This document shows, piece by piece, positions 9,846-62,636 of a stretch of DNA of 64,000 bases. The notes under the pieces were generated by a model. The model did not search any database and had not been told where the DNA came from. It saw nothing but the letters and a program-made list of their open reading frames with translations. Each line of letters opens with the position of its first letter. Positions within the stretch are counted from its first letter, which is position 1. The position numbers and the translations under genes are program-made. The DNA lies in the sequence record PZ445436.1. One strand, given 5' to 3'. The stretch comes from a phage.

Positions 9846-9859
9846 TCTTTGACGATTTA

Positions 9860-9877
9860 AGGGACCTTCGGGTCCCT
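9860..9877 (+). terminator. Intrinsic terminator after gene 23
   Basis: AGGGACC-UUCG-GGUCCCU hairpin followed by T-rich tract. Confidence 0.75.
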
Positions 9878-9893
9878 TTAGTTGTTTTTATGG

Positions 9894-9901
9894 TATAAAT
9901 A
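9894..9901 (+). promoter_or_regulatory. Late promoter (TATAAATA) for gene 24
   Basis: Exact TATAAATA after the gene 23 terminator, 27 nt upstream of gene 24 ATG. Confidence 0.6.
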
Positions 9902-9928
9902 AATCATATAAACTGAAAGGAAAGCGCA

Positions 9929-12736: not shown

Positions 12737-12805
12737 GTTATCGAGTTGGTGCCATTATATACATCATTTTCTGATTGTGTTTTGTGTGCTTTCAAAATGA
12801 AGAAA

Positions 12806-12819
12806 GGGGCCGAAGCCCC
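12806..12819 (-). terminator. Terminator-like hairpin after hoc
   Basis: GGGGC-CGAA-GCCCC followed on minus strand by U-rich tract. Confidence 0.55.
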
Positions 12820-12825
12820 TTACGA

Positions 12826-14244
12826 TTATGGATAGGTATAGATGATACCAGTTTCTAAAGCAGTTTTGTGAATGATGTATCCATTACGCGATTCTTGGAC
12901 ATCAACTTCTGGATAGTCTTTCATCATCTTCTGAAGCGTATAACGATGCAGGTAGTATTTACTATCTGGATCTTCAGTTTTCCAATCTTTACCTTCTTCA
13001 GTCATTTTTTGGATTTCATCCATAACCCACCAACCGCACCAGATGTAAGCTGAAGTACGATGTGGAAGAGGATGAACATAAGGTAATTCACCTTCTGGTT
13101 CTGGAGCAACTTTATCAGTCACTTGAACTTGACCTTCTGCTGTAATAGTTTTACTATCATAATCAGTTGCCGTAACGATAGCAGTAACTTCAATAGTTTG
13201 ACTTCCAACAGATGACGTATCAACGGTATACACATTAGTTGATCCTTCTACAGGAGAAGAATCTTTCTTCCATGAATAAGCAATTTGTGCTTCTTCTGGT
13301 GCATCAGTGACATTAGCAGTAAATGTGGCCGAAGCATCTTGCTGAACATTAATAGAAGGAGGAGTCAATGTAACCTGTGGATTCATTGTCTTCTTATTAA
13401 CTGTTAATGATACTTCATTCGAAGTAACTTCCTTTTCATTGTAATTTTCAGCAGTTACTTGGGCTACGCATTTAATTTTTTTTACTCCACTTGTAGTTGG
13501 AGTATAGCTAAATGTAGAGTTAGTTTCTCCACCAACTTGTGAATCATCTACATACCACTGATACGTAGCAGACGCTCCAACTGGTTGAGAAGCTAAGGCA
13601 GCAGTAAATTGAACTGGGGTTCCAATTACTCCAGCTGAAGGACTATCGGGAGTTACTGCCAAAGTAGTTGTCTGTGTCTTTTTATTAACAGTCAGTGACA
13701 CTTCATTAGAAGTAACGCTTAGTGCGTCATAATCTGTTGCGGTTACTTGAGCCACACACTTGATTTTTTTAACTCCGCTTGTGGTAGGAGTGTAATTGAA
13801 TGTAGCGCTAGTTGCTTCGTCCACAGGAGAATCATCTACATGCCACTGATATGTAGCATTTGCGCCCGATGGCTGCGAAGCTAAAGTAGCGGTAAATTCA
13901 ACAGCTGTTCCGATTACTCCTTCCGGAGGACTATTAGGAGTTACAGCTAAGGTAGTCGTTTGTGTCTTATTTTGAACTGTGATAGTTGTACTAATTTCAG
14001 CTGTTTCTGGACTACTATCGGCAACTTGATTTGTTGCAACTACTTTAATAGTCTTTTGACCGGCAGGTCCTTTTAATACATAACTAAAAGTTGCTTCAGC
14101 CCCATCTTGTGGAACATCATCTACAGTCCAAGCATATGTAATAGGTCCATCTCCAGTTTGACCACTGGGTGTAGCAGTAAACTGCTGAGTCTGATCTATA
14201 ACTCCAGTAGGTGTTTTAGGAGTTATATCAACTGTAAAAGCCAT
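12826..14244 (-). CDS. hoc: Highly immunogenic outer capsid protein Hoc, with four Ig-like domains
   Basis: 472-aa ORF; N-terminus MAFTVDITPKTPTGVID and C-terminal capsid-binding region as in T4 Hoc; contains a tandemly duplicated 96-aa Ig-like unit. Confidence 0.9.
   Translation of the reverse strand: MAFTVDITPKTPTGVIDQTQQFTATPSGQTGDGPITYAWTVDDVPQDGAEATFSYVLKGPAGQKTIKVVATNQVADSSPETAEISTTITVQNKTQTTTLAVTPNSPPEGVIGTAVEFTATLASQPSGANATYQWHVDDSPVDEATSATFNYTPTTSGVKKIKCVAQVTATDYDALSVTSNEVSLTVNKKTQTTTLAVTPDSPSAGVIGTPVQFTAALASQPVGASATYQWYVDDSQVGGETNSTFSYTPTTSGVKKIKCVAQVTAENYNEKEVTSNEVSLTVNKKTMNPQVTLTPPSINVQQDASATFTANVTDAPEEAQIAYSWKKDSSPVEGSTNVYTVDTSSVGSQTIEVTAIVTATDYDSKTITAEGQVQVTDKVAPEPEGELPYVHPLPHRTSAYIWCGWWVMDEIQKMTEEGKDWKTEDPDSKYYLHRYTLQKMMKDYPEVDVQESRNGYIIHKTALETGIIYTYP
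13393..13968 (-). repeat. In-frame tandem duplication (2 x 288 bp) encoding two Ig-like domains of Hoc
   Basis: Units 13393-13680 and 13681-13968 both encode KTQTTTLAVTP...SNEVSLTVNK, roughly three quarters identical at protein level. Confidence 0.85.
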
Positions 14245-14253
14245 AAGTTATCC

Positions 14254-14934
14254 TTATTTTAATGTTACGAAAGAAGAATTGCGTGTTTCACGAATTAAAA
14301 CTGATCCGTCACGGTTAATGTAATAAATTAAGCTAAATAAAGTTTGGTGTGCTGACGCATGCTCAAAACTTGTTGGGTGAGATTTCCAATCCGGAGTTTC
14401 AGCAATCCATTGATAAATCCACCAAGGAACAGTGCAGAATCCTGGATTTTTTCCAATCAGTTGAAGATTCGGACTAAAGTTTTCCGGAAGAGTAAATACA
14501 GACGGCTTTTCAGATTCAATAATCTCAGCTACAGCCTGTTCAAATTTTTCTTCAACAAAAGGAGTATCTTCAATCAAAACATCGGTATTTTCAGGAATTT
14601 TATCCTTTTCTACTACTTCAATTTTAATGTCAGATTTAACTGGAGAATCAATTAGAAGTGCTGCTTCTGGATTGACTTCTTCATCGTCATATTTTAATCC
14701 CTCTGCGGCATCAGCAGCATCAATTAAGTCTTTAATAGATAACCCATCAGTCTCTGGCATAGGCTCACTAGCGAGCTTCTGGAGGGCTTCTTCAATATCA
14801 GCAACGATATTATCAAAAGATTTATTCTTTTTGACCTTTATACCAAACTGTTCAGCATATTCAGCTAATTTAGCTTTAGCTTCTTTGTTATCATCAAGAG
14901 CCTTCAGCTCTGCAATATAATCTTTATCTATCAT
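14254..14934 (-). CDS. inh: Inhibitor of prohead protease, T4 Inh (hoc.1)-like
   Basis: 226-aa ORF, length and position as T4 inh. Confidence 0.85.
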   Translation of the reverse strand: MIDKDYIAELKALDDNKEAKAKLAEYAEQFGIKVKKNKSFDNIVADIEEALQKLASEPMPETDGLSIKDLIDAADAAEGLKYDDEEVNPEAALLIDSPVKSDIKIEVVEKDKIPENTDVLIEDTPFVEEKFEQAVAEIIESEKPSVFTLPENFSPNLQLIGKNPGFCTVPWWIYQWIAETPDWKSHPTSFEHASAHQTLFSLIYYINRDGSVLIRETRNSSFVTLK

Positions 14935-14947
14935 AATATTTCCTCAG

Positions 14948-14955
14948 TATAAATA
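14948..14955 (+). promoter_or_regulatory. Late promoter (TATAAATA) for uvsW
   Basis: Exact TATAAATA 29 nt upstream of uvsW ATG. Confidence 0.6.
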
Positions 14956-14984
14956 TAGATATATTTATTACATGGTATTTAGAC

Positions 14985-16496
14985 ATGACTGACATTAAAG
15001 TACATTTTTATGATTTTAGTCACGTGAGAATTGATTGTGAAGAAAGTACATTTCATGAACTCCGTGATTTCTTTAGCTTTGAAGCTGATGGGTATCGTTT
15101 TAATCCGAAATACAAATATGGCCACTGGGATGGACGAATCCGTCTTTTAGATTATAATCGTCTTCTTCCATTCGGCTTAGTCGGGCAAATTAAAAAGTTC
15201 TGTGATAACTTTGGCTATAAAGCCTGGATTGACCCACAAATTAACGAAAAAGAAGAATTATCAAGAAAAGATTTTGATGAATGGCTTTCTAAATTAGAAA
15301 TCTATTCAGGAAATAAAAGAATTGAACCACACTGGTATCAAAAAGATGCAGTGTTCGAAGGATTAGTTAATCGTCGTAGAATTCTTAATCTTCCAACATC
15401 CGCTGGTAAATCTTTAATTCAAGCTTTGCTTGCGCGATATTATTTGGAAAATTATGAAGGTAAAATTCTTATCATTGTTCCAACAACTGCTCTGACAACT
15501 CAGATGGCTGATGACTTCGTTGACTATCGTTTATTCAGTCATGCAATGATAAAGAAAATTGGCGGCGGAGCATCAAAAGATGATAAATATAAAAATGATG
15601 CACCAGTCGTTGTTGGTACATGGCAAACTGTAGTAAAACAACCGAAAGAATGGTTCTCACAGTTTGGAATGATGATGAATGATGAATGTCATCTTGCTAC
15701 AGGAAAAAGTATTTCATCCATCATATCAGGTTTAAATAACTGCATGTTCAAATTCGGTTTGTCTGGTTCATTACGTGATGGCAAAGCTAATATCATGCAG
15801 TATGTTGGAATGTTTGGTGAAATATTTAAGCCAGTAACGACTTCTAAATTAATGGAAGATGGACAAGTAACTGAGCTAAAAATTAATAGTATTTTTCTTC
15901 GCTATCCCGATGAGTTCACTACTAAATTAAAGGGAAAAACTTATCAAGAAGAAATAAAAATTATTACTGGGCTTAGTAAAAGAAATAAATGGATCGCTAA
16001 ATTAGCTATTAAGCTTGCGCAAAAAGATGAAAACGCTTTTGTCATGTTTAAACATGTATCGCATGGTAAAGCTATTTTCGATTTAATTAAAAATGAATAC
16101 GATAAAGTTTATTACGTATCAGGGGAAGTTGATACCGAAACCCGCAATATAATGAAAACCTTAGCTGAAAATGGTAAAGGAATAATTATAGTAGCTAGTT
16201 ATGGTGTATTTTCTACTGGTATTTCAGTTAAAAATCTGCATCACGTTGTTTTAGCGCACGGTGTTAAATCAAAAATCATTGTATTACAAACAATCGGTCG
16301 TGTATTACGTAAGCATGGTTCTAAGACAATAGCAACAGTCTGGGACCTCATAGATGATTGTGGTGTTAAGCCAAAATCTGCTAATACGAAAAAGAAATAT
16401 GTTCATTTGAACTATCTTTTAAAACACGGCATTGATCGTATTCAGCGCTACGCAGATGAAAAATTTAATTACGTAATGAAAACAGTTAATTTATAA
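14985..16496 (+). CDS. uvsW: UvsW DNA/RNA helicase (SF2)
   Basis: 503-aa ORF; Walker A PTSAGKS and DECH box; late promoter upstream. Confidence 0.95.
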   Translation: MTDIKVHFYDFSHVRIDCEESTFHELRDFFSFEADGYRFNPKYKYGHWDGRIRLLDYNRLLPFGLVGQIKKFCDNFGYKAWIDPQINEKEELSRKDFDEWLSKLEIYSGNKRIEPHWYQKDAVFEGLVNRRRILNLPTSAGKSLIQALLARYYLENYEGKILIIVPTTALTTQMADDFVDYRLFSHAMIKKIGGGASKDDKYKNDAPVVVGTWQTVVKQPKEWFSQFGMMMNDECHLATGKSISSIISGLNNCMFKFGLSGSLRDGKANIMQYVGMFGEIFKPVTTSKLMEDGQVTELKINSIFLRYPDEFTTKLKGKTYQEEIKIITGLSKRNKWIAKLAIKLAQKDENAFVMFKHVSHGKAIFDLIKNEYDKVYYVSGEVDTETRNIMKTLAENGKGIIIVASYGVFSTGISVKNLHHVVLAHGVKSKIIVLQTIGRVLRKHGSKTIATVWDLIDDCGVKPKSANTKKKYVHLNYLLKHGIDRIQRYADEKFNYVMKTVNL

Positions 16497-16508
16497 GGGC
16501 TTCGGCCC
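16497..16508 (+). other. UUCG-tetraloop hairpin between uvsW and uvsW.1
   Basis: GGGC-UUCG-GCCC followed by TTT and the uvsW.1 SD. Confidence 0.45.
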
Positions 16509-16521
16509 TTTGGAGAAAAAG

Positions 16522-16752
16522 ATGTTACTAGAATTTAAACAATTTCTTTATGAAGCTTCTATTGATGAATTTATGGGTAAAATTGCCTCTTGTCAAACAT
16601 TAGAAGGTTTAGAAGAACTTGAAGCTTATTATAAGAAAAGAGTTAAAGAAACTGAATTAAAAGATACTGATGACATCTCAGTTAGAGATGCTTTGGCAGG
16701 AAAAAGAGCTGAATTAGAAGATTCAGACGATGAAGTAGAAGAAAGCTTTTAA
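16522..16752 (+). CDS. uvsW.1: UvsW.1 small acidic protein
   Basis: ORF-track start 16510 is a TTG; first ATG at 16522 follows GGAG SD; 76 aa as T4 UvsW.1. Confidence 0.75.
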   Translation: MLLEFKQFLYEASIDEFMGKIASCQTLEGLEELEAYYKKRVKETELKDTDDISVRDALAGKRAELEDSDDEVEESF

Positions 16753-16807
16753 ATTAAAAAAGGCCCAACCAAAAAGGAAGGGCCAAAACTATAGACTAAA
16801 GGTCACA

Positions 16808-16975
16808 CTATAGCAAAAGTTGTGTTTCATTTAATTGTTCTTCCGAACTTTCTGAAACTGGTAGTTCTTTAATGTAATTATAGCAAGGCCCAGGATGTAC
16901 AGGACCTTTGTCTGTTTCAACAACCAATGCAGAATCGATTGGAGTTTTACAGACAACACAAATCTTATCTGACAT
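16808..16975 (-). CDS. Small Cys-containing protein, T4 UvsY.-2-like
   Basis: 55-aa ORF translated by hand (MSDKICVVCKTPIDS...), below the ORF-track length cut-off; fills the gap before uvsY.-1. Confidence 0.5.
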   Translation of the reverse strand: MSDKICVVCKTPIDSALVVETDKGPVHPGPCYNYIKELPVSESSEEQLNETQLLL

Positions 16976-17000
16976 GATTGTCTCCTCTGAATTATATATC

Positions 17001-17008
17001 TATTTATA
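17001..17008 (-). promoter_or_regulatory. Possible late promoter for the uvsY.-2-like ORF
   Basis: Plus-strand TATTTATA (minus TATAAATA) 26 nt upstream of the small ORF start. Confidence 0.4.
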
Positions 17009-17228
17009 CAACTCTCATATGCATATCAATGCCCATATCTTTAGAATAAAAATATTCATCAAGATATCCGGCAAATTTTCCTTTAATATAAAGGACATCT
17101 TCACCACACGGGTGGTCGGCCAGGATACGAATATCCTGACGCTTAAGATTATGCTTTTTCATTAAGAATTGAATTTCCGTTTCAAATTCTTCTTCATAAT
17201 TAAAAGCATCATCAATGCTATATCTCAT
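17004..17228 (-). CDS. Hypothetical protein, T4 UvsY.-1-like
   Basis: 74-aa ORF directly downstream of uvsY. Confidence 0.7.
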   Translation of the reverse strand: MRYSIDDAFNYEEEFETEIQFLMKKHNLKRQDIRILADHPCGEDVLYIKGKFAGYLDEYFYSKDMGIDMHMRVV

Positions 17229-17641
17229 TATTTTCCAGCCTCAAATGCTCGCATGTCTTGAATATGCTTAATAGCAAATCCGCGTGATTTGATAGCATCA
17301 AGAGCTCCGCTACAGAAATCTAATAAAATCCCCCAATACTGTAACGAGGTATCAACCTTTAAAACATCCTTATCAGCTGATAGAACTGTTTTCATTTCTG
17401 ATTTCTCGTAACGATCCATACTAAATTCATCACCATCTCCTCGTCCCGAGTAGTAGTCTAATTTAGCTTTAAGAGCAACTTTTTTCTGTGCATCAATTCT
17501 AAGCATTTCCTTTTTAATACTTGAATGCTTATTAAGCCATTTACTATATAACATCACATTATTAGCTGCTTCATACTGTAATTTAGTCGAATCTATAAAC
17601 ACATCTTTCTTCAATTCTTCTTGAAGATCTTCTAATTTCAT
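17228..17641 (-). CDS. uvsY: Recombination mediator protein UvsY
   Basis: 137-aa ORF, length and sequence as T4 UvsY; MotA-box middle promoter upstream. Confidence 0.9.
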   Translation of the reverse strand: MKLEDLQEELKKDVFIDSTKLQYEAANNVMLYSKWLNKHSSIKKEMLRIDAQKKVALKAKLDYYSGRGDGDEFSMDRYEKSEMKTVLSADKDVLKVDTSLQYWGILLDFCSGALDAIKSRGFAIKHIQDMRAFEAGK

Positions 17642-25347: not shown

Positions 25348-25402
25348 TTCCTCATGTTATGCCAGTAAGACTACTATAACACAACACGAGGGACTTGTAA
25401 AC
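25348..25402 (-). repeat. 55-bp promoter cassette, copy 1 (near-identical copy at 41198-41252)
   Basis: tcctcatgttatgCcagtaagactactataacacaacacgagggacttgtaaac; one mismatch to copy 2. Confidence 0.9.
25373..25402 (-). promoter_or_regulatory. T4-type early promoter upstream of the alt.-3-like ORF
   Basis: Minus strand GTTTAC-N18-TATAGT with TGT immediately before the -10 (extended -10). Confidence 0.6.
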
Positions 25403-27459
25403 TACATTTTGAACTTTTTAGACATTCCGTTGATGTTAACCAAAGAAGCCAAGATTTGAGAAACTTCGTTTTCCTCTTCTTTTGATTCTTCTACAAGGAA
25501 TTGATTAAATCCAGCCATTGGACGAACTTCACCAGTTTCCATTAGATGGTCGCCATCATATACCGATTCCTCTAATTGTTCAGAAGGAGGAACGATTGTA
25601 CCTTCTATTAGATACTTGTTATAAGCAGTTTCTTTCATAAAGTACGTGCTCACTTTATTAATCTTCAGTAAAATTCCACGCGGTAGAATAACTTCAGCTT
25701 CTGATGGAAATCCTGATAAATGACCTGGAACGATAACTTTGATTCGCTCAGCTCCTTTAATTACCATACCCACGCTAGTTTCAGCATCTTCATTAGCATA
25801 TGTAGAATGACTACCCATATGCATCAAATCTTCTGCATCAACGGAACCTTCTCCTTCGCCAGAAAATACTGCGCCGGAATCATCTAGAGCCATATAGTTT
25901 TTACCGTGCTCACCGAAAATATTTGGTTTAAGCGATGTGGATACGAAGTTCTTGAAATAGAACATTTTGTTTTCAATATTATGACGCAAAGTTTTAAAGG
26001 TAACTTCTTGTCCACGGTAAAGTGTAGTTCCTGGAGGAAGAACTGAACCTTTAGCGAATGCAGAATCAAGCGTCTCAATATGTTTAATAGCTCGTTCCAT
26101 ATATTCTTCACGGGTAGAATCTGGTTTACCCAAAAGGAACGAGTTCATTTCAACATATGAATCTGCACAATAATCTTCAATTACATCAGATTCAGCTTGA
26201 GTTAATCCTTTTGGAGTTACTTCGGTGCTTGCGTATTCATATGCCTGAGCGGCAGATTCATTAATCAATTTATAAATGCCATTCATTACAAATTGAATAA
26301 TAGCTGTCTTTTCATCTGGCGTAGCTTTAGAACCTTTAACCAAATCATTGATAATTTTCTTAATAACATCAAAGCTATTAGAAATATTAATGTCAGCAAG
26401 ATCGCTTAAAATTTTATCAGTTTTATAATCAAAGAATTCTTTATTCTTTAAATATTCTTGAGAACCTTGATATGCTATATCGCTCTGCAACTTGATAGAT
26501 GGATCACGTAAACGTGCATGGGCTAATGCAATATGATTTCGGAAGTTTTCTAGTTCGTAATCGCTAGATTTAAAACGAGAAGCACTTCTCATACCACCAA
26601 TAGCTCCTTTGCTGAAGTTTGAACCAATCTGAATAACGCCAGAGTTCATTGGTCCTTCTGCTTTATACACCGGAACTTTAGATTCAAACTCTTGATATTT
26701 CTTAGCAGCGAAGCTATCACCCTGAAGTGAAGCATCGACAGTAGAATATTGAGCTTGTGCTGCTAATCGACGACTAATTTTAGTTTTCTGAATAACAGCT
26801 TGATCAGTGCGCTTATCATTTTCTAAAGCAATAGAAGCAGCAACAGCGACAGCTTTAGGAACAGCATTACCTGTTTTAACGTCTACATAAACATCACCAA
26901 CCTTTGATTCAACTTTTGTGAATAACTCAGTTGAAATAGGAGGTACACCTGGAATGTCTTCTAAATTGGCATTTTTACGGTAAACCATAATATATGCATA
27001 TTTCTTATCATAGTCCCAGATTTCCTTTAAAAGAACATATCGACCTGCTCCTTTAGTACGTACTAAACGGTCAGCAATAACTTGCATTTGACGAGCAGCG
27101 CCATTTGTTTTACTCTTTAGTACGCGGAATAGGCATGCGTCGATTTTATACTGTTTCATTGTTTGAAGAGCAGTATCAAAAACGGCATTAATGACGCCAA
27201 TTGGATTTCCACCCAAGTTTCTAAGCTTGACTAACGATAATTTCTCGTTGACACCTATCATTACGATATGCATCATTTTGTCGCCTGGCTTAACGTTTTT
27301 ATTCGTATCACCGCCAGAGGTGTATGTACAAAATCTAAATCCAGGAAGAACGCTTTCTTCACCGGCTTGAATAGCAAAAATTTGTGGTATTTTATGCTTA
27401 GGATTTAAGTTAACAACCGGCGCCGAAGCGCCGTCAAATAATTCTGTAATAAGTTCCAT
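25402..27459 (-). CDS. Alt-type ADP-ribosyltransferase paralog (685 aa)
   Basis: N-terminus MELITELFD shared with the upstream Alt; C-terminal ART signature YRGQ / FVSTS / EAEVILPRG (R-S-ExE); ATG 3 nt after the upstream stop with AAGGA SD. Confidence 0.85.
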   Translation of the reverse strand: MELITELFDGASAPVVNLNPKHKIPQIFAIQAGEESVLPGFRFCTYTSGGDTNKNVKPGDKMMHIVMIGVNEKLSLVKLRNLGGNPIGVINAVFDTALQTMKQYKIDACLFRVLKSKTNGAARQMQVIADRLVRTKGAGRYVLLKEIWDYDKKYAYIMVYRKNANLEDIPGVPPISTELFTKVESKVGDVYVDVKTGNAVPKAVAVAASIALENDKRTDQAVIQKTKISRRLAAQAQYSTVDASLQGDSFAAKKYQEFESKVPVYKAEGPMNSGVIQIGSNFSKGAIGGMRSASRFKSSDYELENFRNHIALAHARLRDPSIKLQSDIAYQGSQEYLKNKEFFDYKTDKILSDLADINISNSFDVIKKIINDLVKGSKATPDEKTAIIQFVMNGIYKLINESAAQAYEYASTEVTPKGLTQAESDVIEDYCADSYVEMNSFLLGKPDSTREEYMERAIKHIETLDSAFAKGSVLPPGTTLYRGQEVTFKTLRHNIENKMFYFKNFVSTSLKPNIFGEHGKNYMALDDSGAVFSGEGEGSVDAEDLMHMGSHSTYANEDAETSVGMVIKGAERIKVIVPGHLSGFPSEAEVILPRGILLKINKVSTYFMKETAYNKYLIEGTIVPPSEQLEESVYDGDHLMETGEVRPMAGFNQFLVEESKEEENEVSQILASLVNINGMSKKFKM

Positions 27460-27462
27460 GAT

Positions 27463-29559
27463 TTATCCTTGAACGAACTTGTAAGGCATGTTTGTAATAT
27501 CTATGCAAGACGCAATAATTCCAAGAGATGATTCTACTTTCTGTTTAACGTTTGATGAAACAAATGATGCAAAGTCAACTCTGTCTTCTATTTCAATATC
27601 ACCTGTCATTGCAACCAATTCACCAGTTTCCATTAAATGGTCTCCATCATAGATTACCGATTCGGTGAGCTCTTCCGTGGTCATAACTTCAGCTTGAATG
27701 AGTTTTGTATTATTAGATGTTGTTCCGTCATTATTAGAAGCATCAGTTATTTTATTAACTTTGACCATCAATCCACGCGGTAGAATAACTTCAGCTTCTG
27801 TTGCTATTCCGAGACTTCCTGGATATACAACATTAACTTTATGTGCGCCGTCAATTGCCCATCCTATTTGAACTTTAACGTATTCAGGATTTTCTTTATA
27901 CGCTCTTATTTCGTTTGGATTAATAGTTATTCCTTCTTCATTTTTATCAACTGTCAATTCATTACGAGCTTCTGGTTCTAAAAGACCAATACCAGCATGT
28001 GTAATTCCAAAACGCCCAAAAATGATAGGAGTTAAAGAAGTAGATACAAAATTTCTGAAATAGAACACTTTATTTTTAACTAGCGCTTCGTATATAGGAG
28101 CAGTCATACTTTGAGCACGATAAACTGTAATGCCTTCCGGTATGCGGTCACCATTTTCAAAAGCTGAATCTAAATTATTTATAGCAGATTCAATTTCTTT
28201 TTCACTCATTACATCATATCGTTCTGGATTGTAACGACCTAAAAGAAGATTATTGATGTCAGTATATCCTGAACCACAATACTCTCTAATGCCGCGCTTT
28301 TGTGATGGAGTATATTTAGAACCATCACGGGCAATAGTAATATCAATCATTGGACCTGCACCAATTCCAGAAAAACTATAAATCATTCTTTTGAGGAATT
28401 TAGTTTTTGCTGCGTTCCAGGAATTTTTAGTCATTTCTTCCCAGACTTCATCTGGCTGCCCTTTACGAGTTTTATTATGTTTATCAAGCCAATTATCTTT
28501 ATATTCTTCAAAGAATTTATTAACAGCTGCTGCGTATTTCTCTAAACATTTTATTGAAGTAGTTGGCTCATTTTTTATCGCGTTAAAAATTACATCTTTA
28601 ATTTTTTCGGAAACTTCATCAACCTCACTTTTTGAAAAGAATTTATAGTCATAATGAAGTTCATTCGCAGTTCCTTCGGCAATAATTTTTGCTGCCTTAG
28701 TTTTAGAAGCTAATGAATTAATTCCAAGCTTCATTTCTTCTGCTTCGGGAATTAAAGGAGCGGTAGCAGGTTTATTAAAATTAGCTGCTGTAGATTCATA
28801 CTTCTGGAATAATTCACTTTCAAATCTAGAAGATTCCAATGATTGACTTTGCGCAATTGCTCTACGGGAAATTTTAACTTTAACGATTACAGCTTGGTCA
28901 GAACGTTTATCATTTTCTTGTGCAATAGATGCTGCAATTGCCTCATTTTTAGTTACTTGAGCTCCAGTATCTTTATTGATATAAACATCACCGACCTTCG
29001 ATTCAACTTTAGTAAAGAGCTCGGTACTAATTTCCGGAACCCCTGGAATGTCTTCTAGTGATACATTTTTGCGATGTATAAGAATATATGCATACTTTTT
29101 ATCGTAATCCCAGAGTTCCTTAAGAAGGACGTATCTGCCACCTGAACGACTACGGATAAGTCTATCAGCAATAACTTGAATTTGTCGAGCTTGACCAGCG
29201 GTTTTAGACTTAAGAATACGGAGCATACAGGCATCAATTTTATACTGACGCATTGTTTGTATTGCAACAGTAAAAACTGAATTGATATAATTAATTGGGC
29301 TTGGACCGAGACCTTTTAATTTAGCAATTGAACCTTTGGCAGTTAATGTAAAAGGAACGATATGCATCATTTTATCGCCCATTTTTAAATCGCGATTAGT
29401 ATCACCTCCAGATGTATAGGTACATAAACGAAAGCCTGGTTGTTCAATTGCATCATCAACATGAACTGAAAAAATTTGTGGTATTTTCTTCTTTGGGTTT
29501 AAGTTTGTAATCGGAAGAGTAGTATCTTCGTCAAATAATTCTGTAATGAGTTCCATCAT
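27463..29559 (-). CDS. alt: Alt ADP-ribosyltransferase (698 aa)
   Basis: N-terminus MMELITELFD; ART signature YRAQ / FVSTS / EAEVILPRG; minus-strand TATAAATA 21 nt upstream. Confidence 0.85.
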   Translation of the reverse strand: MMELITELFDEDTTLPITNLNPKKKIPQIFSVHVDDAIEQPGFRLCTYTSGGDTNRDLKMGDKMMHIVPFTLTAKGSIAKLKGLGPSPINYINSVFTVAIQTMRQYKIDACMLRILKSKTAGQARQIQVIADRLIRSRSGGRYVLLKELWDYDKKYAYILIHRKNVSLEDIPGVPEISTELFTKVESKVGDVYINKDTGAQVTKNEAIAASIAQENDKRSDQAVIVKVKISRRAIAQSQSLESSRFESELFQKYESTAANFNKPATAPLIPEAEEMKLGINSLASKTKAAKIIAEGTANELHYDYKFFSKSEVDEVSEKIKDVIFNAIKNEPTTSIKCLEKYAAAVNKFFEEYKDNWLDKHNKTRKGQPDEVWEEMTKNSWNAAKTKFLKRMIYSFSGIGAGPMIDITIARDGSKYTPSQKRGIREYCGSGYTDINNLLLGRYNPERYDVMSEKEIESAINNLDSAFENGDRIPEGITVYRAQSMTAPIYEALVKNKVFYFRNFVSTSLTPIIFGRFGITHAGIGLLEPEARNELTVDKNEEGITINPNEIRAYKENPEYVKVQIGWAIDGAHKVNVVYPGSLGIATEAEVILPRGLMVKVNKITDASNNDGTTSNNTKLIQAEVMTTEELTESVIYDGDHLMETGELVAMTGDIEIEDRVDFASFVSSNVKQKVESSLGIIASCIDITNMPYKFVQG

Positions 29560-37132: not shown

Positions 37133-37365
37133 AGTACGCCATACACCCTTTGTGCTTCAACTAATCCATCAAAATCCAATTTAAGATGCGATATTTGATC
37201 GCCATCGCCTGGATTCACAATTACTAATACTGAACGAGGAGTTTCGGTAATAACACGAACCGATGTTTCAGGAAATCGTTCAGAAACCTTATTTACTAAT
37301 TCCTGCGCAAATAGTTTAACTTTTTCTTGGAATTCTTTAACAGTAATTGGTTTTTCACTTAGCAT
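37129..37365 (-). CDS. Hypothetical protein (cd.x cluster)
   Basis: 78-aa ORF. Confidence 0.55.
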   Translation of the reverse strand: MLSEKPITVKEFQEKVKLFAQELVNKVSERFPETSVRVITETPRSVLVIVNPGDGDQISHLKLDFDGLVEAQRVYGVL

Positions 37366-37886
37366 GTTGATCCCAGCTCCTTACTTTCAACATTTTTAAC
37401 TAATTTGACAGAAACTAATTCAGCATCTTGAGTAATCATTACCGGACCTTCTTCATACTCTTCAAGATATTCTAGAGCTTTCTTTTTAGCTTCTTCCTTC
37501 GTATCAGTTTGAGCATAGATATAAAACATACAACCAGTAATACCTACTACTTTCCACTTAATTTCTTTATCAGCTTTAATTTCAAATTTACTGACAGAAT
37601 CATCTTTTTGAACTTCTTCGAAAAAAGAATATTCTAACATATAAGCAATTGAAAATAACGGGCTATCTTTATAGGATTCGCCCATTACATCAATAGCTTT
37701 ATACCAACAGTCATCAATTTCGCGTTTAATGCTAATAACATTCTTTGCAGGGTCAATTTTTACTTTAAATAAATTTTCCCCAATAAACTGGGCAATTCGT
37801 TTATTAGCCCCGCAAGTTTCATTAAAAATATCTTTATACCCAGTTTTAAAGCGATAAACCTTATCTTCTTCAAACCATTCGCTCAT
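37359..37886 (-). CDS. Hypothetical protein (cd.x cluster)
   Basis: 175-aa ORF preceded by early promoter. Confidence 0.6.
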   Translation of the reverse strand: MSEWFEEDKVYRFKTGYKDIFNETCGANKRIAQFIGENLFKVKIDPAKNVISIKREIDDCWYKAIDVMGESYKDSPLFSIAYMLEYSFFEEVQKDDSVSKFEIKADKEIKWKVVGITGCMFYIYAQTDTKEEAKKKALEYLEEYEEGPVMITQDAELVSVKLVKNVESKELGSTC

Positions 37887-38427: not shown

Positions 38428-39820
<1,393 letters not shown>

Positions 39821-39824
<4 letters not shown>

Positions 39825-41255: not shown

Positions 41256-42843
<1,588 letters not shown>

Positions 42844-42870
42844 AATAAAATGGGCCTTGCGGCCCACTCC
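42844..42870 (-). promoter_or_regulatory. denA translation initiation region with hairpin between SD and ATG
   Basis: Minus strand: nrdB stop, GGAG, hairpin TGGGCC-GCAA-GGCCCA, UUUUAUU, ATG. Confidence 0.5.
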
Positions 42871-44049
42871 TTAAAAATATTTTTTAAAACTCATCATAAC
42901 TTTATCATCAACATCATTATCAATCTGTGCAACAAGGTAAGATGACAGTTCTACTTCTTGTGGCGCGGATTGAACATTATCAGAATTAAGATATTCACGA
43001 ATCCAAGGATACGGATGTTTAACCGGAGCATCAGTAATTGGGCACGGAAGACCACACTGTTTCATACGAGATACAGTTAAGTAATCAATAAAGCTCCACA
43101 TGCTATTTGTATTTAATCCAGGAACATCGCCATCTTTAAATAAATGAACTGCCCAATCTTTTTCTTGGCGGTTAACTTCCATGAAAATATCAACTGCTTC
43201 TTGTTCACACTCTTTGGCAATTTTAACCCATTCATCACCATCCGTGCCAAGTTGAAGTTGACGAATAATATATTGTGTACCTTTAAGATGAAGCTGCTCA
43301 TCACGTGCAATGAACTTCATAATCTTGGCATTACCTTCCATGATTTCCATGTTCTTATGGAAGTTAAAGGTACATGCGAAAGATACATAAAAACGAATAG
43401 CTTCCAATGCGTTGATTACATGCAGACAAAGGTAAAGAGAACGCATTAGTTCGTATTTGCATTCTTCTACATGCATAAGGCTATTTGAATATGCGTCCAA
43501 ATCATATTCATTCTCTGAAAAACACCTAAAAATTTCTTTTGCGTTTTCCCATTCACGAGTTTTCTCAATAACATCATCATAATAACGACCAATAGATTCA
43601 GCACGTTTCATGATAGCTTTATCTAATACAATCTCATCAAATACCTTTGACGGGTCAGTATAAAGATTTCGCATAATATGAGTGTATGAACGGCTGTGAA
43701 TAGTTTCACTAAAAGTCCATGTAGCAACCCATGTATCAAGGCTTGGGTCTGAAATTAATGACATAAGTACAGCAGACGGTGCACGACCCTGAATGCTATC
43801 TAGAAGTGATTGATACTTCAGGTTATTAGTAAAAATATCTTGCTGATACTGAGGAAGCTTGTTAAATTGTGCAGCATCCATCATCAAGTTTACTTCTTCA
43901 GGACGCCAGAAAAATGACAATTGCTTTTCGGTTAAATCTTCAAAAACTTTATGGCGTTGAATATCATAACGCGCAATACCAAGACCTGAACCGAAGAACA
44001 TAGGTTCTTTTAAAACATCAACTGGATTTGTATTAAAAACTGTGCTCAT
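42871..44049 (-). CDS. nrdB: Ribonucleotide reductase small subunit, uninterrupted
   Basis: 392-aa contiguous ORF. Confidence 0.9.
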   Translation of the reverse strand: MSTVFNTNPVDVLKEPMFFGSGLGIARYDIQRHKVFEDLTEKQLSFFWRPEEVNLMMDAAQFNKLPQYQQDIFTNNLKYQSLLDSIQGRAPSAVLMSLISDPSLDTWVATWTFSETIHSRSYTHIMRNLYTDPSKVFDEIVLDKAIMKRAESIGRYYDDVIEKTREWENAKEIFRCFSENEYDLDAYSNSLMHVEECKYELMRSLYLCLHVINALEAIRFYVSFACTFNFHKNMEIMEGNAKIMKFIARDEQLHLKGTQYIIRQLQLGTDGDEWVKIAKECEQEAVDIFMEVNRQEKDWAVHLFKDGDVPGLNTNSMWSFIDYLTVSRMKQCGLPCPITDAPVKHPYPWIREYLNSDNVQSAPQEVELSSYLVAQIDNDVDDKVMMSFKKYF

Positions 44050-44100
44050 AAATTTTCCGCTTAGTTAATAGATAGTGACTCGTCCATGAGTCAAATTATA

Positions 44101-46682: not shown

Positions 46683-46899
46683 ATTGTTTTTCCGTTAATA
46701 CAGTAATATCATAGTAACAATCGGAAGAAGTTTTAACTGTGGAAATTTTATTGTCAAAATACTCACGAGTCATTTTATGAGTATAATATTTTTTACCATA
46801 AATGGTAATAGGCTGTTCTGGTCCTGGAACTTCTAACTCGCTTGGATTAGGAAGTGTAAAAAGAACGACACCAGAAGTATCTTTAAATCGTAAAATCAT
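46636..46899 (-). CDS. Hypothetical protein (nrdA.2-like position)
   Basis: 87-aa ORF; ATGA overlap with td; 47-nt overlap with downstream ORF. Confidence 0.5.
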
Positions 46900-47756
46900 A
46901 TTGCCATTTTCCCTTTAATTGCTGGATGCGATTCATAATTTTCAAGGATAAAATCTTTCGGTTTCATGTATTCAGTTAACCAGTAAAGCTGTGTTTCGGT
47001 GTCACAATTTTCAAACTCTATAGGCCAATCAATTTTAAGTTCACACAGTTCTTTAGGCTCACGACGTAAAATTTCTTTACATTGCTCAGTATGATTCATA
47101 TAGATGTGAGTATTACCACCAGAAAATATCAAATCTCCTGGGATAAGATTACACATCTTAGCCACAATATGCGTCAAGGCAGCGTACGAGGCAATGTTGA
47201 ACGGCAAACCCAAGAAAACATCTACACTTCTTTGGTACCATTGTAAATCAAGATAACCATTACGCACATTAAACTGATAGAACATATGACAGGGCGGTAA
47301 TGCCATTTGATTGATTTCAGCTGGATTCCATGCTGAAACGATTTGACGTCGATCAGTTGGTAATTTTTTAATACGATCAATAGTTTCAACTAATTGATCC
47401 ACACCACCGAAATCACGCCATTGTTTACCGTATATAGGACCAAGTTCACCACTATGATATCCTAGGTCTTTAGCTTGGTTTTCATAATTGTCATCCCAGA
47501 TAGTTTTACCTTGAATAAGACTACCGTGAGTAAGAAGACGTAAATCATTAACATTGGTAGAACCGGAAATAAACCATAAAAGCTCAGCAATGCATGCATT
47601 CCAGGCGAGCTTCTTAGTTGTTACTGCAGGAAAACCTTTAGTTAAATCCCAGCGTAATTTAGTACCGAACAAAGCAATTGTTCCTGTGCCCGTTCGGTCA
47701 TCGGTTTCATAGCCATTTTCAAAAATGTCTTTAATTAAATCTTGGTATTGTTTCAT
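46896..47756 (-). CDS. td: Thymidylate synthase, uninterrupted
   Basis: 286-aa contiguous ORF with active-site PPCH motif. Confidence 0.95.
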
Positions 47757-47801: not shown

Positions 47802-48149
47802 TCAATACGGTTTAGCATCAAATTTTCTCTCAATTTCAGGTGTGAAATATAATTCTTTACCGCGTTTGGAAAAGCGACCAATAATATGATAATTATTCTC
47901 ATCAAACGTAATATTACCAATATCCATAGCTTTCAACCAAATATCGATATTTCTATCCAGCTTTATGTCAAAATTCCAATACGGAGAACTATTACCGAAA
48001 ATACTGCAAGCGGATTCAGTGAAACAACTGCTATAAATCTTGTCTTTAGGAACTACTAATTGATAGACACCTTTAATAAACTGAGGACCTTGCCATTTTG
48101 GCTGTTTCGTGTCTTTTTCTAATAGAATAGGGTAATAATTAAAATTCAT
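47802..48149 (-). CDS. Hypothetical protein inserted between frd and td
   Basis: 115-aa ORF with ATG start, 19 nt downstream of the frd stop; no recognisable motif. Confidence 0.6.
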   Translation of the reverse strand: MNFNYYPILLEKDTKQPKWQGPQFIKGVYQLVVPKDKIYSSCFTESACSIFGNSSPYWNFDIKLDRNIDIWLKAMDIGNITFDENNYHIIGRFSKRGKELYFTPEIERKFDAKPY

Positions 48150-48168: not shown

Positions 48169-48989
<821 letters not shown>

Positions 48990-49299: not shown

Positions 49300-49560
49300 T
49301 TATTTTTGAATTTTATCGAGCCACTTACCAAGCTTAATCATTTCTTTAGTAGCCTTTTCCATACTTCTGAACTTGACCAATAGAGGATAGGTATCGACAC
49401 CCATAACTAAACTGGTTACAAGACTGTGTTCACCCACAAGCCATAACGAATACGTTTGAATATCGAGCCCGTAATTTCTGTCTTTATGGACCCGTACACC
49501 CATCACTTCAAATTTCTCACTAGCTTTTTCTACCGCATCCAGGAAATCATCTTTAGTCAT
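49300..49560 (-). CDS. Hypothetical protein (frd.x cluster)
   Basis: Start placed at internal ATG (MTKDDFLDAV, AAGG SD, 1 nt after upstream stop), 86 aa. Confidence 0.5.
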   Translation of the reverse strand: MTKDDFLDAVEKASEKFEVMGVRVHKDRNYGLDIQTYSLWLVGEHSLVTSLVMGVDTYPLLVKFRSMEKATKEMIKLGKWLDKIQK

Positions 49561-49561
49561 A

Positions 49562-49942
49562 TTAGGCCTTAAAAGTTTTTCGCAAAAGTTCAATGATTTC
49601 ATCTACATTGTTTTCGTCAACAATGCAGTGAATTTTTGTTACGCCAGAAACCTTGTCTTTGACTTCATCTTCTTCAGAAGTCGGTTCTTTATACTCACGA
49701 AAACAATGAAATTCATCTTCGCAAATTTCTAAAAGTCTATCTTTGAGGTAAAAATGCTTTCCATTTGCGCATTCAATGTGTTTTACTGCTTTATATCCAT
49801 TAGCGACGGAAACTTCTTTAACTTCAAACCATCCGCCATTATCTCGAATAGCTTTAACGATTGATGAATTAGAACGTGGGCTATAATTAATAAATGTATC
49901 AATAAGTCTTGGAACAAGTTCATACTTTTTGCCAATATACAT
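49562..49942 (-). CDS. Hypothetical Cys/His-containing protein
   Basis: 126-aa ORF; HIECANGKH ... CEDEFHCF ... HC suggests possible metal binding. Confidence 0.55.
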   Translation of the reverse strand: MYIGKKYELVPRLIDTFINYSPRSNSSIVKAIRDNGGWFEVKEVSVANGYKAVKHIECANGKHFYLKDRLLEICEDEFHCFREYKEPTSEEDEVKDKVSGVTKIHCIVDENNVDEIIELLRKTFKA

Positions 49943-50359: not shown

Positions 50360-51268
50360 TTAAAGGTCATTCAAAAGGTCATCCAGGTCCGTGTCATCAG
50401 CACTAGATGAACTGCCAGAGCTTGAGCTCATAAAATCATCTTCAGTTTTTGTATTGAAGTCATCAACATTGAATGCATCCAAATCATCAGCAACTTTATC
50501 AGCTTTCTTAGCAGCAGTTGCAGCGGCACCGCCCATCACAGCAGTTCCCATGACTTGACCGAATTTAGTGCTCAGTTCTTCAAACGATTTGAATTTATCT
50601 TTAGAAGTCATTTCAGAAAGGTCAACCATTTGTTCGAACAGTTCTTTCTGGAAAGATTCATCGTCAATGTTTGGAATCGCAGATTGATTCAGGAATTTAG
50701 ATTCGTCGTAGTTACTAAAACCAGAAACTTGTTTAACTTTCAGTACAAAGTTAGCACCTTCCCACGGACAAGTTACATCAACCGGAGTTTCACCCATTTC
50801 AACATCAACTGCAATCATTGCGTTGATTTTATCCCAGATTTTCTTACCGAAACGGTATTTAAATACTTTACCTTCATTTTCTGGAGCAGCTGGGTCTTTT
50901 ACAACAAGAATGTTAGCCCAGTAAGAAGTTTTACGTTTAACAAGACTGTACTCTTTATTGTCAGTGTTGTACAGATCATTTTTACTGATGTACTGACATA
51001 CTGGGCAAGAATCGTAATCACCGTGGGTAGATGAACAGTTTTCAATATACCATTTACCATTTTTCTTGAAACCATGATTTACAAGAATTGCGAATGGTGC
51101 TTGTTCATCATTTTTAGACGGAAGAAAACGAATTACTGCTTGACCGTTACCCGCATTGTCGAGTTTCAGTTTCCACTCGCCTTTATCTTCAGAAGAAAAA
51201 CCACCTTTATTTCCAGCCAGTTTAGCCATTTGTGCAGCGAGTTCAGCAGTAGATTTACGTTTAAACAT
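50360..51268 (-). CDS. 32: Single-stranded DNA-binding protein, T4 gp32
   Basis: 302-aa ORF; zinc-binding H...CPVC region and acidic C-terminus; A/U-rich UUAAA-repeat leader. Confidence 0.95.
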
Positions 51269-51342
51269 TTTTATTTCCTTTTTAATTTAATTAACAGTTG
51301 GTGCTATGACGATGTATGACCTCATAGCTGGTCAGTGAGATA
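51269..51342 (-). promoter_or_regulatory. Gene 32 5' leader / autogenous translational operator region
   Basis: Leader ends ...UUAAUUAAAUUAAAAAGGAAAUAAAAUG; in T4 gp32 binds this unstructured A/U-rich region next to a pseudoknot. Confidence 0.5.
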
Positions 51343-51367
51343 ATTATAATCTATTTATAATAAGCAA
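51343..51367 (-). promoter_or_regulatory. Possible middle-type promoter for gene 32 (imperfect MotA box)
   Basis: Minus strand TTGCTTA ... TATAAT; overlaps a TATAAATA motif. Confidence 0.3.
51352..51359 (-). promoter_or_regulatory. Possible late promoter for gene 32
   Basis: Plus TATTTATA about 85 nt upstream of the gene 32 start. Confidence 0.45.
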
Positions 51368-52021
51368 TTAATACTTGCAAGATTTCACAGTTTCAATAAA
51401 AACTTTTTTAGCTTCCTGTGAATCAATATTTAAAATTTTTCTATAAGCCTTTAACTTTATAGAATAATTATTCCAGACTAAATTATCAGTCTGTTCATCA
51501 TGTTTATCAATTATATTTAAAAATGAATCAAGCAAGATAAACGTCTCAAACGAAATTATGTTCGATTGCAGAAGTTTAAAAATATAACTTGATTGAACCT
51601 TTGGATTATATTCAAAGATTTCTTTAAAAGCAGAAACTTCAACTTTTTTACTAAAATAATAAATGTTGCGAATATCTTCTTCAAACTTAAATTTAATTTG
51701 CTTTAAGCGTCCGATATATTCACGATAAAACACAAGTGCATCAGCGTCAGAGATGTCGCCAATCCAAGCATCTTGGTTAGCAACCAAATTACTTATAAAG
51801 ATTAAAGCAAGTTCCTTTAATTTATATTTTTCTGATAACTTCTGGAAAAAATACTTATCCCTTCGCTTTTGATAAGCGGCATCAGACACCCGCATGCACC
51901 AATTATACTTAATTACATCATACTTTCCATTCATATGCTGTTTTATCATTAAGTATAATTTATAAACTGATTTACCATCAATGTATCTTTCACCACCAGC
52001 AGGCATGCGGAGTTTAATCAT
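51368..52021 (-). CDS. 59: Helicase loader, T4 gp59
   Basis: 217-aa ORF, length as T4 gp59. Confidence 0.9.
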   Translation of the reverse strand: MIKLRMPAGGERYIDGKSVYKLYLMIKQHMNGKYDVIKYNWCMRVSDAAYQKRRDKYFFQKLSEKYKLKELALIFISNLVANQDAWIGDISDADALVFYREYIGRLKQIKFKFEEDIRNIYYFSKKVEVSAFKEIFEYNPKVQSSYIFKLLQSNIISFETFILLDSFLNIIDKHDEQTDNLVWNNYSIKLKAYRKILNIDSQEAKKVFIETVKSCKY

Positions 52022-59363: not shown

Positions 59364-62300
59364 ATGGCTACTTTAAAACAAATACAATTTAAAAGAAGCA
59401 AAACTGCAGGTCAACGTCCTGCTGCTTCAGTATTAGCCGAAGGTGAATTGGCTATAAACTTAAAAGATAGAACAATTTTTACTAAAGATGATTCAGGAAA
59501 TATCATCGATTTAAGCATTTCTGCTGGTGGTAATATCAGTGGTAATATTACTCAAACTGGAGATTATTTACAGAACGGTACATACAATCTCAATGGAAAT
59601 CAGTTTGTTTATGCAGGAAAATATATTGAATTTTTACCTAAAACAGCTGGTAATGGTGCGTGGGCAAATCAACACCTAAATAAAGCTCCTATCTTTACAG
59701 ATTTAAGTTCAACTACTTCTATTTCAGAATATCATCCACTCATTAAGCAACGCTATAAAGATGGAACTTTTTCAGCGGGTACATTGGTTGCTGAAGGCAG
59801 TTTTAAAATTCATTTTATGAATGAATCTGGTGATTCGAAATATTGGACGTTTCGCCGTGACGGTGGATTTACTGTTGACAATGGAGGTTTAGCAGTATCA
59901 GGTGGTAGTATAACCACAACCGGAAACATCGCCGCGATCGGAAATATTACTTCGCCCCAGATTAATACTAAAAATATTATTTTAGATACAAAGGCATTCG
60001 GACAGTATGATTCACAGTCATTAGTTCAATATGTTTATCCTGGAACAGGTGAAGAAAATGGTATAAACTATCTTCGTAAAGTTCGAGCTAAATCAGGCGG
60101 AACTATTTACCATGAAATCGCTTCAGCTCAAACTGGTAAGAATGATGAAATTTCTTGGTGGACCGGAAATACACTTACTACTAAATTAATGGGTCTTCGT
60201 AATGATGGCGCAATGGTATTACGTCGTTCACTTGCTATTGGCACAATTACCACTGATGAAAATACTAACAACTACGGTTCTCCTACTCCAATGGGAGAAA
60301 GATATATTGCTTTGGGCGATGCTGCAACCGGTTTAAAATACATTAAGCAGGGTGTTTATGATTTAGTAGGTAATTGGAATTCTGTTGCTTCTATTACTCC
60401 TGACAGTTTCCGTAGTACTCGTAAAGCGTTATTTGGTCGTTCAGAAGACCAAGGTGGAACATGGATTATGCCTGGAACGAACGCTGCCTTTTTATCAGTC
60501 CAAACACAGGCTGATGAAAACACTGCTGGAGACGGTCAAACCCATATTGGATATAACTCTGGCGGTAAAATGAACCACTATTTCCGTGGTAAAGGAAAAA
60601 CTAATATTAATACTCAAGAAGGCATGGAAGTTAACCCGGGTATTTTGAAATTGGTAACTGGCTCTAATAATGTAATGTTTTATGCTGATGGCGGTATTAC
60701 ATCTGTTAAGCAGCTTTCAATATATAACGGCATATATTTAGCAGCTAATAATTCTACTGCTGGGCTAACATTCGCTCCAACTACTACAATTGATGGCACT
60801 AAGCAAATTTTGTGGGAAGGCGGTACTCGTGCTGGTCAGAATAAAAGCTATGTAACTGTTAAAGCATGGGGTAATTCATTTAACGCATCTGGCGATCGTA
60901 ATCGTGAAACGGTTTTTGAAGTAGCTGATGGACAAGGATATTATTTTTATTCACAGCGTGTGGCTCCAAGTGGCTCTGAAACTACTGGGCCTGTTGTAAC
61001 CCAGTTCAATGGACAAGTTAATGCTAGAGGAAGTATTATTACTGACGGAAGTTTTAAAGTTAATGGATTAAGCACTTTAGTCGGTAATGTTACTATGTCT
61101 AATGGTTTGTTTGTCCAAGGTGGTTCTTCTATTACTGGACAGGTAAAAATTGGTGGAACGGCTGATGCATTAAGAATTTGGAATGCTGAATACGGTGCTA
61201 TTTTCCGCCGTTCAGAAGCGTCATTACATATTATCCCTACTCCTAAAGATGCCGGTGAAAGCGGTGGAATAAGTAATCTCCGCCCACTTAGTATTAGCCT
61301 TAATAATGGTATGGTGCAAATGCGTCATTCCGTTACATTAGGTGATGATGGTGCAGGCGGTAATATGGTGACGGTTGATAATGATTCTAAAGTTATGGTA
61401 ATGACGACTAATAGCCGTATTAGTCCTAACTTCCGTATGCAAATTGGACAGTCGTCTTATATTGATGTGGAATGTACTGATGCTGTGAGACCTACTGGAG
61501 CCGGTTCTTTTGCTTCACAGAATAACGAAAACGTTCGCGCTCCGTTCTATATGAATATTGATAGAACAGATACAAGCACTTATGTTCCTATTGTGAAACA
61601 AAGATACGTTCAAAATAATAGTTGCTATTCTATTGGTACTTTAATTAATGGTGGTAACTTTAGAGTTCATTATCATGAAGGCGGTGACGGCGTTTCTACT
61701 GGTGCTATTATAAAGGATCTTGGATGGGAATTTAATAAAAACGGTGATTTTTATTCTCCTGGTAAATTAGGCGCTGGAAATATTAGAATAGGTACTGATG
61801 GTAATATTACTGGCGGAACTGGTAACTTTGCTAACTTGAACACAACTATCGAATCATTAAAAACCGATATTGTTTCAAGTTATCCTATTGGAGCTCCTAT
61901 TCCATGGCCTACAGATACTCCTCCTAATGGTTACGCTATTATGGAAGGACAGACTTTTGATAAGTCTGCATACCCAAAATTGGCTATAGCTTACCCATCT
62001 GGAGTAATTCCTGATATGCGCGGGCAAACTATCAAAGGTAAACCAAGCGGTCGTGCTGTGTTAAGTGCAGAAGCTGATGGTGTTAAGGCTCATAACCATA
62101 GTGCTTCAGCATCTAATACTGATTTAGGTACTAAAACTACATCAAGCTTTGATTATGGCACTAAGACGACAAGTAGCTTTGACTATGGCACTAAGACTAG
62201 CAATACCACAGGTAACCACTCTCATACTGTAAGCGGTACTACGAGTTCTGCTGGTGCACACCAACATGCGCGCTCAGGTCCTCAGATACAAGCCGGCATA

Positions 62301-62636
62301 CCCAATAACATATTCTATGACGGATATAATAGTGTAGGTGCAAACGCCAACGCTAAATTCACTGGAACCGTGAACGGTGCTACTGCATGGTCGAATATAG
62401 CCAAAACTTCTTCAGACGGTGCTCATACTCATACTTGGTCTGGTACTACAAGCACTACAGGTAACCATGCTCACACAGTAGGTATTGGTGCTCATACCCA
62501 TACTGTAGGTATCGGTGCTCATACCCACACGGTAGCAATTGGCTCGCATGGTCATACTATCACTGTAAATAGTACAGGTAATACAGAAAACACGGTTAAA
62601 AACATTGCTTTTAACTATATCGTTCGTTTAGCATAA
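59364..62636 (+). CDS. 37: Long tail fibre distal subunit (receptor-binding), T4 gp37-like
   Basis: 1090-aa ORF; C-terminal His-x-His repeats and terminal [11 protein letters not shown]. Confidence 0.9.
62127..62213 (+). repeat. In-frame 30-nt tandem repeat in gp37 tip ([10 protein letters not shown] x2 plus partial)
   Basis: GGTACTAAAACTACATCAAGCTTTGATTAT / GGCACTAAGACGACAAGTAGCTTTGACTAT / GGCACTAAGACT... Confidence 0.8.
62478..62558 (+). repeat. In-frame 27-nt tandem repeat in gp37 (VGIGAHTHT x2, VAIGSHGHT)
   Basis: Three consecutive 27-nt units each encoding a His-x-His motif. Confidence 0.8.

Follow-up and report, generated by a model that had tools for sequence, protein, structure and literature searches.

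The phage deposited as PZ445436.1 is, with a probability that we put at roughly 0.9, a T2-like Tequatrovirus with uninvaded, empty homing sites at the inh/uvsW, 59/32, 23/24, and nrdA/nrdB junctions and in td and nrdB. The window (the whole 64,000-nt stretch analyzed here) lacks all six of the homing endonuclease genes (HEGs) that the annotation of T4 (NC_000866.4) places in the homologous span, namely segD, segE, I-TevIII, mobE, I-TevI, and segG. The seg-less state of the inh/uvsW and 59/32 junctions is correctly described but ordinary, being the majority state among sequenced Tequatroviruses and already known.

The window belongs to a Tequatrovirus and is colinear with T4 from 96,672 to ∼160,985 (blastn), covering gene 17 through t in strict colinearity at roughly 95–97% identity. 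Its alignable bases number 59,439 of 64,000, and the rest is fully explained by four empty junctions, a second alt paralog, five small window-specific ORFs, and three hypervariable pieces of gene 37. The alignment gaps fall exactly at segD, segE, the nrdB intron, nrdB.1 plus mobE, the td intron, and segG (Table 1). All window bases are either colinear with an annotated non-HEG gene of T4 or lie inside ORFs that were scanned, and our statements on HEGs cover these 64 kb of a genome of ∼167 kb. A megablast search with positions 12800-17300 matched 814 phage records, nearly all of them Escherichia and Shigella Tequatroviruses, the best relatives being ∼97% identical and isolates other than T2; a 25-kb query gave a like result, with no record reaching 99% identity.

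The earlier note on this DNA had stated that T4 carries free-standing GIY-YIG seg genes at both junctions, and the reference annotation (NC_000866.4) bears this out: inh and uvsW are separated by segE (112057-112674), and genes 32 and 59 by SegG (147909-148541). The same T4 insertion sites are given in the table of Edgell, Gibb and Belfort 2010 (PMC2988022). A T4 without seg genes at these places, which would contradict the note, is not what RefSeq shows. The synteny comparison that the note had proposed finds both junctions seg-less in the window, with alignment breaks at segE and segG, and the distances it gave are exact, both for inh and uvsW as neighbors 50 bp apart and for the 99-bp gap between genes 32 and 59 (51269-51367). 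Also missing are segD (23/24; T4 106561-107232) and mobE (nrdA/nrdB; T4 139991-140416), which the note did not mention.

Table 1. Features of the window discussed in the text, with corresponding T4 positions for some of them.
Feature	Window position	Strand	T4 position	Remarks
23/24 spacer, empty segD junction	9846..9928	.		83 bp; TATAAATA at 9894-9901 (+)
segD gap	9856/9917		106521/107311	blastn boundary
inh (hoc.1), prohead protease inhibitor	14254..14934	-	111327-112007	226-aa ORF; 97.7% to T4 inh
inh/uvsW spacer, segE-less (empty)	14935..14984	.		50 bp
T4-type late promoter core TATAAATA	14948..14955	+		Upstream of uvsW; predicted from consensus
segE gap	14971/14991		112044/112680	blastn boundary
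19 nt specific to seg-less phages	14972..14990	+		uvsW translation-initiation region and first two codons
uvsW helicase	14985..16496	+		Pfam UvsW_N 3.9e-43, ResIII, DEAD, Helicase_C
uvsW 5' tract	14991..15190	+		76–90% to T4 (background 97–100%)
175-aa ORF	37359-37886	-		Between cd.2 and cd.3; not in T4
100-aa ORF	39522-39824	-		pseT/pseT.1 junction; not in T4
denA (endonuclease II)	42433-42867	-		PF01541 27.1 bits, cutoff 22.6; only GIY-YIG-family gene in window
nrdB, uninterrupted	42871..44049	-		392 aa; exon junction equivalent ∼43373-43376
nrdB intron + I-TevIII gap	43373/43376		138457/139058	blastn boundary
nrdB.1 + mobE gap	44049/44105		139719/140420	blastn boundary
nrdA/nrdB spacer, empty mobE + nrdB.1 junction	44050..44100	.		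51 bp
td, uninterrupted	46896..47756	-		286 aa; exon junction equivalent ∼47204-47207
td intron + I-TevI gap	47204/47207		143543/144563	blastn boundary
115-aa ORF	47802-48149	-		td/frd junction; not in T4, present in T2
80-aa ORF	48747-48989	-		frd/frd.1 junction; not in T4
100-aa ORF	49300-49602	-		frd.1/frd.2 junction; not in T4
Gene 32, single-stranded DNA-binding protein	50360..51268	-		Pfam gp32 3.2e-67
59/32 spacer, segG-less (empty)	51269..51367	.		99 bp; 100% identical to T2 spacer
Gene 32 leader pseudoknot, T2-type	51303..51334	-		UGACC-A-GCUAUGA-GGUCA-UACAUCG-UCAUAGC; pairing by eye
segG gap	51331/51367		147918/148542	blastn boundary
35 nt specific to seg-less phages	51332..51366	-	147919-148542	segG in its place in T4
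-10 TATAAT	51348-51343	-		12 nt downstream of TTGCTTA; putative, from consensus
Late promoter TATAAATA	51359-51352	-		Between TTGCTTA and TATAAT; putative, from consensus
MotA-box-like TTGCTTA	51367-51361	-		Putative, from consensus
Gene 59, helicase loader	51368..52021	-		Pfam T4_Gp59_N + T4_Gp59_C, ∼1e-53

That the whole window is without a HEG, as the earlier note had stated, was found by synteny, tblastn, phmmer, and profile searches alike. All 15 T4 endonuclease proteins served as queries, and phmmer and the profiles were run on six-frame ORFs of at least 25 aa. In tblastn, the best match of the 15 queries to the window had an E-value of 0.02 (in alt) and no HEG was found, while in the T4 control segment each resident endonuclease was recovered, with cross-hits among paralogs of 1e-20 to 1e-26; tblastn and the profile and phmmer searches together found all seg, mob, and Tev controls of T4 at 1e-15 to 1e-167. 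A local GIY-YIG profile recovered nine of nine members in T4 (1e-24 to 1e-44) and gave a best E-value of 0.06 in the window, on denA, which it matched weakly in both genomes. The HNH profile reached no better than 0.66 in the window, compared with 1e-15 to 1e-56 for five T4 mob genes; I-TevIII lies outside this profile control (E 2.6 in T4), and its absence is read from tblastn, phmmer, and the missing nrdB intron. The phmmer search of six-frame ORFs of the window likewise found no HEG, and neither the 50-bp nor the 99-bp spacer contains an ORF of at least 30 aa. The tblastn match of segF at 28780-29115 (E 0.02) was rejected, as it lies inside alt and T4 alt matches too (E 0.43).

The GIY-YIG and HNH profile search that had been suggested thus gave no HEG, as anticipated, though its GIY-YIG part did not come back empty, with denA scoring above the Pfam cutoff (Table 1). 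The window denA product is 99.3% identical in amino acid sequence to that of T4 and occupies the syntenic position, and according to the T4 annotation the enzyme initiates the degradation of cytosine-containing DNA. Because it is conserved at one place in T4 and the window and is an enzyme of cytosine-DNA degradation, denA is no counter-example to the absence of HEGs; in a naive GIY-YIG screen for homing endonucleases it would nevertheless turn up as a false positive.

The five small ORFs that T4 lacks are placed between conserved genes, like free-standing HEGs, and fall into PHROG families that are all of unknown function. Were one of them an unrecognized homing endonuclease of an undescribed nuclease type, the absence of homing elements from the window would be only apparent; foremost by size among the candidates are the frd.2-like 175-aa ORF (37359-37886) and, between td and frd, the 115-aa ORF (47802-48149). 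For the former, a search of 5.8 billion proteins yielded just 4 homologs, and its AlphaFold model is poor (mean pLDDT 47.8, from a 5-sequence alignment). Its N-terminal half is, however, a distant paralog of frd.2 (28% identity; phrog_3710 and phrog_622), the 115-aa ORF is shared with the HEG-poor T2, and none of the five carries a Pfam nuclease domain even at E ≤ 1, nor did PDB sequences and PHROGs yield a nuclease match for window-specific ORFs. The phmmer match of segC to the 100-aa ORF at 39522-39824 (E 0.08) was discarded, since it amounts to 8.9 bits, without GIY/YIG motifs, in a helical, coiled-coil-like protein. We therefore regard a cryptic nuclease among these ORFs as extremely improbable.

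At the inh/uvsW junction, the left-hand ORF is annotated as a prohead protease inhibitor in relatives. The earlier note had the spacer holding just the late promoter of uvsW; the predicted promoter core is indeed there, on the plus strand, but it shares the 50 bp with the inh Shine-Dalgarno sequence (GAGGAAA, minus strand, 14940-14946). The core motif TATAAATA occurs in 20 copies in the window, where 9.3 ± 3.8 would be expected by chance, and several of these stand directly 5' of late genes on the coding strand (e.g. 24, uvsW, and 32). The window follows the T4 sequence up to 14971 (T4 112044), the TATAAATA copy of the spacer included, and because of this identity one and the same late promoter would stand directly 5' of uvsW here and 5' of segE in T4. 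Beyond that point the two differ, T4 having 635 nt (112045-112679) with segE, its ribosome-binding site, and a uvsW start of its own in place of the 19 nt found in the window.

Divergence from T4 around this site is one-sided. On the inh side, identity is 99–100% right up to the junction; in uvsW it is 76% over nt 1-100, 90% over the next 100, and 98–100% beyond. Over its first 300 nt, uvsW of the window is 99.7% identical to T2. AdolfPortmann, a close relative with a segE gene 98.5% identical to that of T4, carries a T4-type tract: over nt 1-300 its uvsW shows 99.0% identity with T4 and 85.8% with the window, and beyond the tract its uvsW is equally close to both. Since the segE-bearing AdolfPortmann has the T4-type tract and the window the other allele, segE and the diverged uvsW 5' tract travel together. 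Judged from sequence, this tract is consistent with a footprint of co-conversion and target immunity, in which the target allele linked to the HEG resists cleavage. In the window, T2, and other relatives, uvsW.1 (80 aa, Pfam UvsW-1) is a gene of its own behind uvsW (503 aa), the two spanning 14985-16752 (+) in the window; T4 RefSeq gives uvsW as a single 1764-nt CDS, with annotation notes on sequence discrepancies.

In the 59/32 spacer, the order on the minus strand is the gene 59 stop, TTGCTTA, 12 nt, TATAAT, the pseudoknot segment, an A/U-rich leader, and the gene 32 ATG. The segment at 51303-51334 is what we take to be the autoregulatory pseudoknot, or operator, of gene 32. Its stem is UGACC/GGUCA (T2-type) in the window versus UGCC/GGUA (T4-type), and in T4 segG runs with its last codons and stop into the 5' strands of the leader pseudoknot. 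Gene 32 itself is 97.1% identical to T2 and likewise 97.1% to T4, with a mosaic of informative sites (21 T2-like, 18 T4-like); its first 120 nt hold 7 mismatches to T4 versus 1 to T2, a weak signal. Consensus matches lead us to infer promoter function for the motifs in both spacers. In T4, segG would have displaced the 35-nt promoter segment, so that the gene 32 promoters would now lie inside segG; the middle and late promoters of T4 gene 32 are embedded within segG (Edgell et al. 2010, PMC2988022).

The claim that td and nrdB are intron-less also held. Both are single ORFs, with N-terminal parts that correspond to T4 exon 1 and C-terminal parts that correspond to exon 2; the Pfam domain Thymidylat_synt covers td in one stretch (1-266/266), and the nrdB domain is likewise unbroken. 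A search of the whole window with Rfam at gathering thresholds gave no match, Intron_gpI included, and therefore no group I intron. The td exon-2 equivalent (46896-47204) has 73% amino acid identity to T4 and the nrdB exon-1 equivalent (43376-44049) 83%, compared with less diverged neighbors such as nrdA (98.7%) and denA (its value as above). This divergence in sequence suggests distinct intron-minus allele lineages beside the insertion sites of the introns and mobE.

The two T4 seg loci share with the window the flanking genes, the late promoter at the segE position, and the gene 32 leader 3' of segG, and beyond ∼200 nt from the segE and segG sites the T4 flanks are 96–100% identical; where T4 has a 618-nt segE ORF and a 633-nt segG ORF, the window has 19 nt and 35 nt. 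The T2 annotation likewise shows spacers of 50 bp at inh/uvsW and 99 bp at 59/32, and T2 is, together with RB27, 100% identical to the window over a 201-bp segment across inh/uvsW. An empty homing site should be a contiguous junction matching that of HEG-minus phages, as found here with T2 and RB27 at inh/uvsW and T2 at 59/32, and should carry a target allele distinct from the HEG-linked one, which is the case at uvsW and weakly so at gene 32. The phage is not T2 itself: T2 hoc is annotated as two fragments, in contrast to the single 472-aa ORF of the window.

For an absence, the question of chance turns into one of base rate, and here the seg-less state is in the majority. The 201-bp query across inh/uvsW matched 606 records, contiguously, as in the window, in 446 of them (74%); the remaining ∼160 gave split matches, in agreement with a count of 159 segE-containing records. 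We counted 142 records with segG, 55 with segD, 21 with full-length mobE, and about 190–216 with I-TevI. The frequency at 59/32 is taken from the segG count, as the 251-bp junction query joined pieces ≤ 625 bp apart and so merged empty and segG-bearing junctions. T4 is an outlier with 15 HEGs (Edgell et al. 2010, PMC2988022), and T2 has been described as a relative poor in HEGs (PMC10448857); that seg, mob, and intron HEGs vary among T-even phages, with T4 rich in them, is already textbook knowledge (Edgell et al. 2010).

The same empty junctions could have arisen by secondary loss, if ancestral segE, segG, and the other HEGs had been precisely deleted or had degraded away. Degeneration and loss are expected from models of the HEG life cycle, defective copies occur in T4 itself (a mobA of 38 aa and a truncated I-TevIII), single HEGs are patchy among close relatives, and recombination with an empty allele after invasion would give a picture identical to that of a site never invaded. 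However, no seg or mob coding remnants were found at either junction in six frames, and neither the 19 nt nor the 35 nt peculiar to the junctions derives from seg. The 35 nt instead carry intact gene 32 promoter motifs, which in T4 are relocated into segG, and the junction sequences are 100% identical to those of T2. We consider loss an unlikely history for these sites.

Under the preferred reading of uninvaded sites, segE and segG are selfish insertions that T4 shares with a minority of related phages, and spacers without them would contain nothing but ordinary expression signals. Those of the 50-bp spacer would be, on one strand, the ribosome-binding site of inh and, on the other, the late promoter TATAAATA with the uvsW start region; the 99-bp spacer would have a predicted MotA-type middle promoter, a late promoter, and the autoregulatory pseudoknot/operator of gene 32. 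In T4, segE would have inserted 3' of the shared late promoter, displacing the first uvsW codons. In a mixed infection with a segE+/segG+ phage, the window sites would be expected to undergo cleavage and be replaced, flanking DNA included, by the seg+ allele; their cleavability by SegE and SegG is probable from their identity to T2 and from review tables. SegE reportedly cleaves the hoc.1-uvsW region of the segE-less RB30 and RB52, with a homing efficiency of ∼100%, and SegG drives the exclusion of T2 gene 32 (PMC2330249). T2, RB30, RB52, and RB27 are seg-less T-even genomes that act as recipients in T4 marker exclusion and homing.

Further differences from T4 lie outside the homing sites. Two full-length Alt-like ADP-ribosyltransferase genes stand in tandem at 25402-29559 (-), and their products of 685 aa and 698 aa each match phrog_802 end to end. 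In T4, a single alt is accompanied by the fragments alt.-1 and alt.-2, annotated as an old partial duplication; the window phage appears to keep an intact second copy. Hoc (12826-14244, -) has 472 aa versus 376 aa in T4, and AdolfPortmann Hoc also has 472 aa. Because T4 110748-111053 aligns twice to window hoc, the alignment points to one additional Ig/PKD-like repeat. The distal half of gene 37 (59514-62492, +) is 75–77% identical to T4, with three unalignable segments, and identity returns to 98.4% in the gene 38 and t region that follows, a pattern that is typical of host-range mosaics.

The window provides a clean HEG-free, T2-type reference of 64 kb in which six T4 insertions are bounded to the base, and annotation pipelines should not expect seg genes at these junctions. 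In co-infection with a T4-type phage, marker exclusion at uvsW and gene 32 is predicted to run against this phage as the recipient, or loser, which would be relevant to phage cocktails or crosses.
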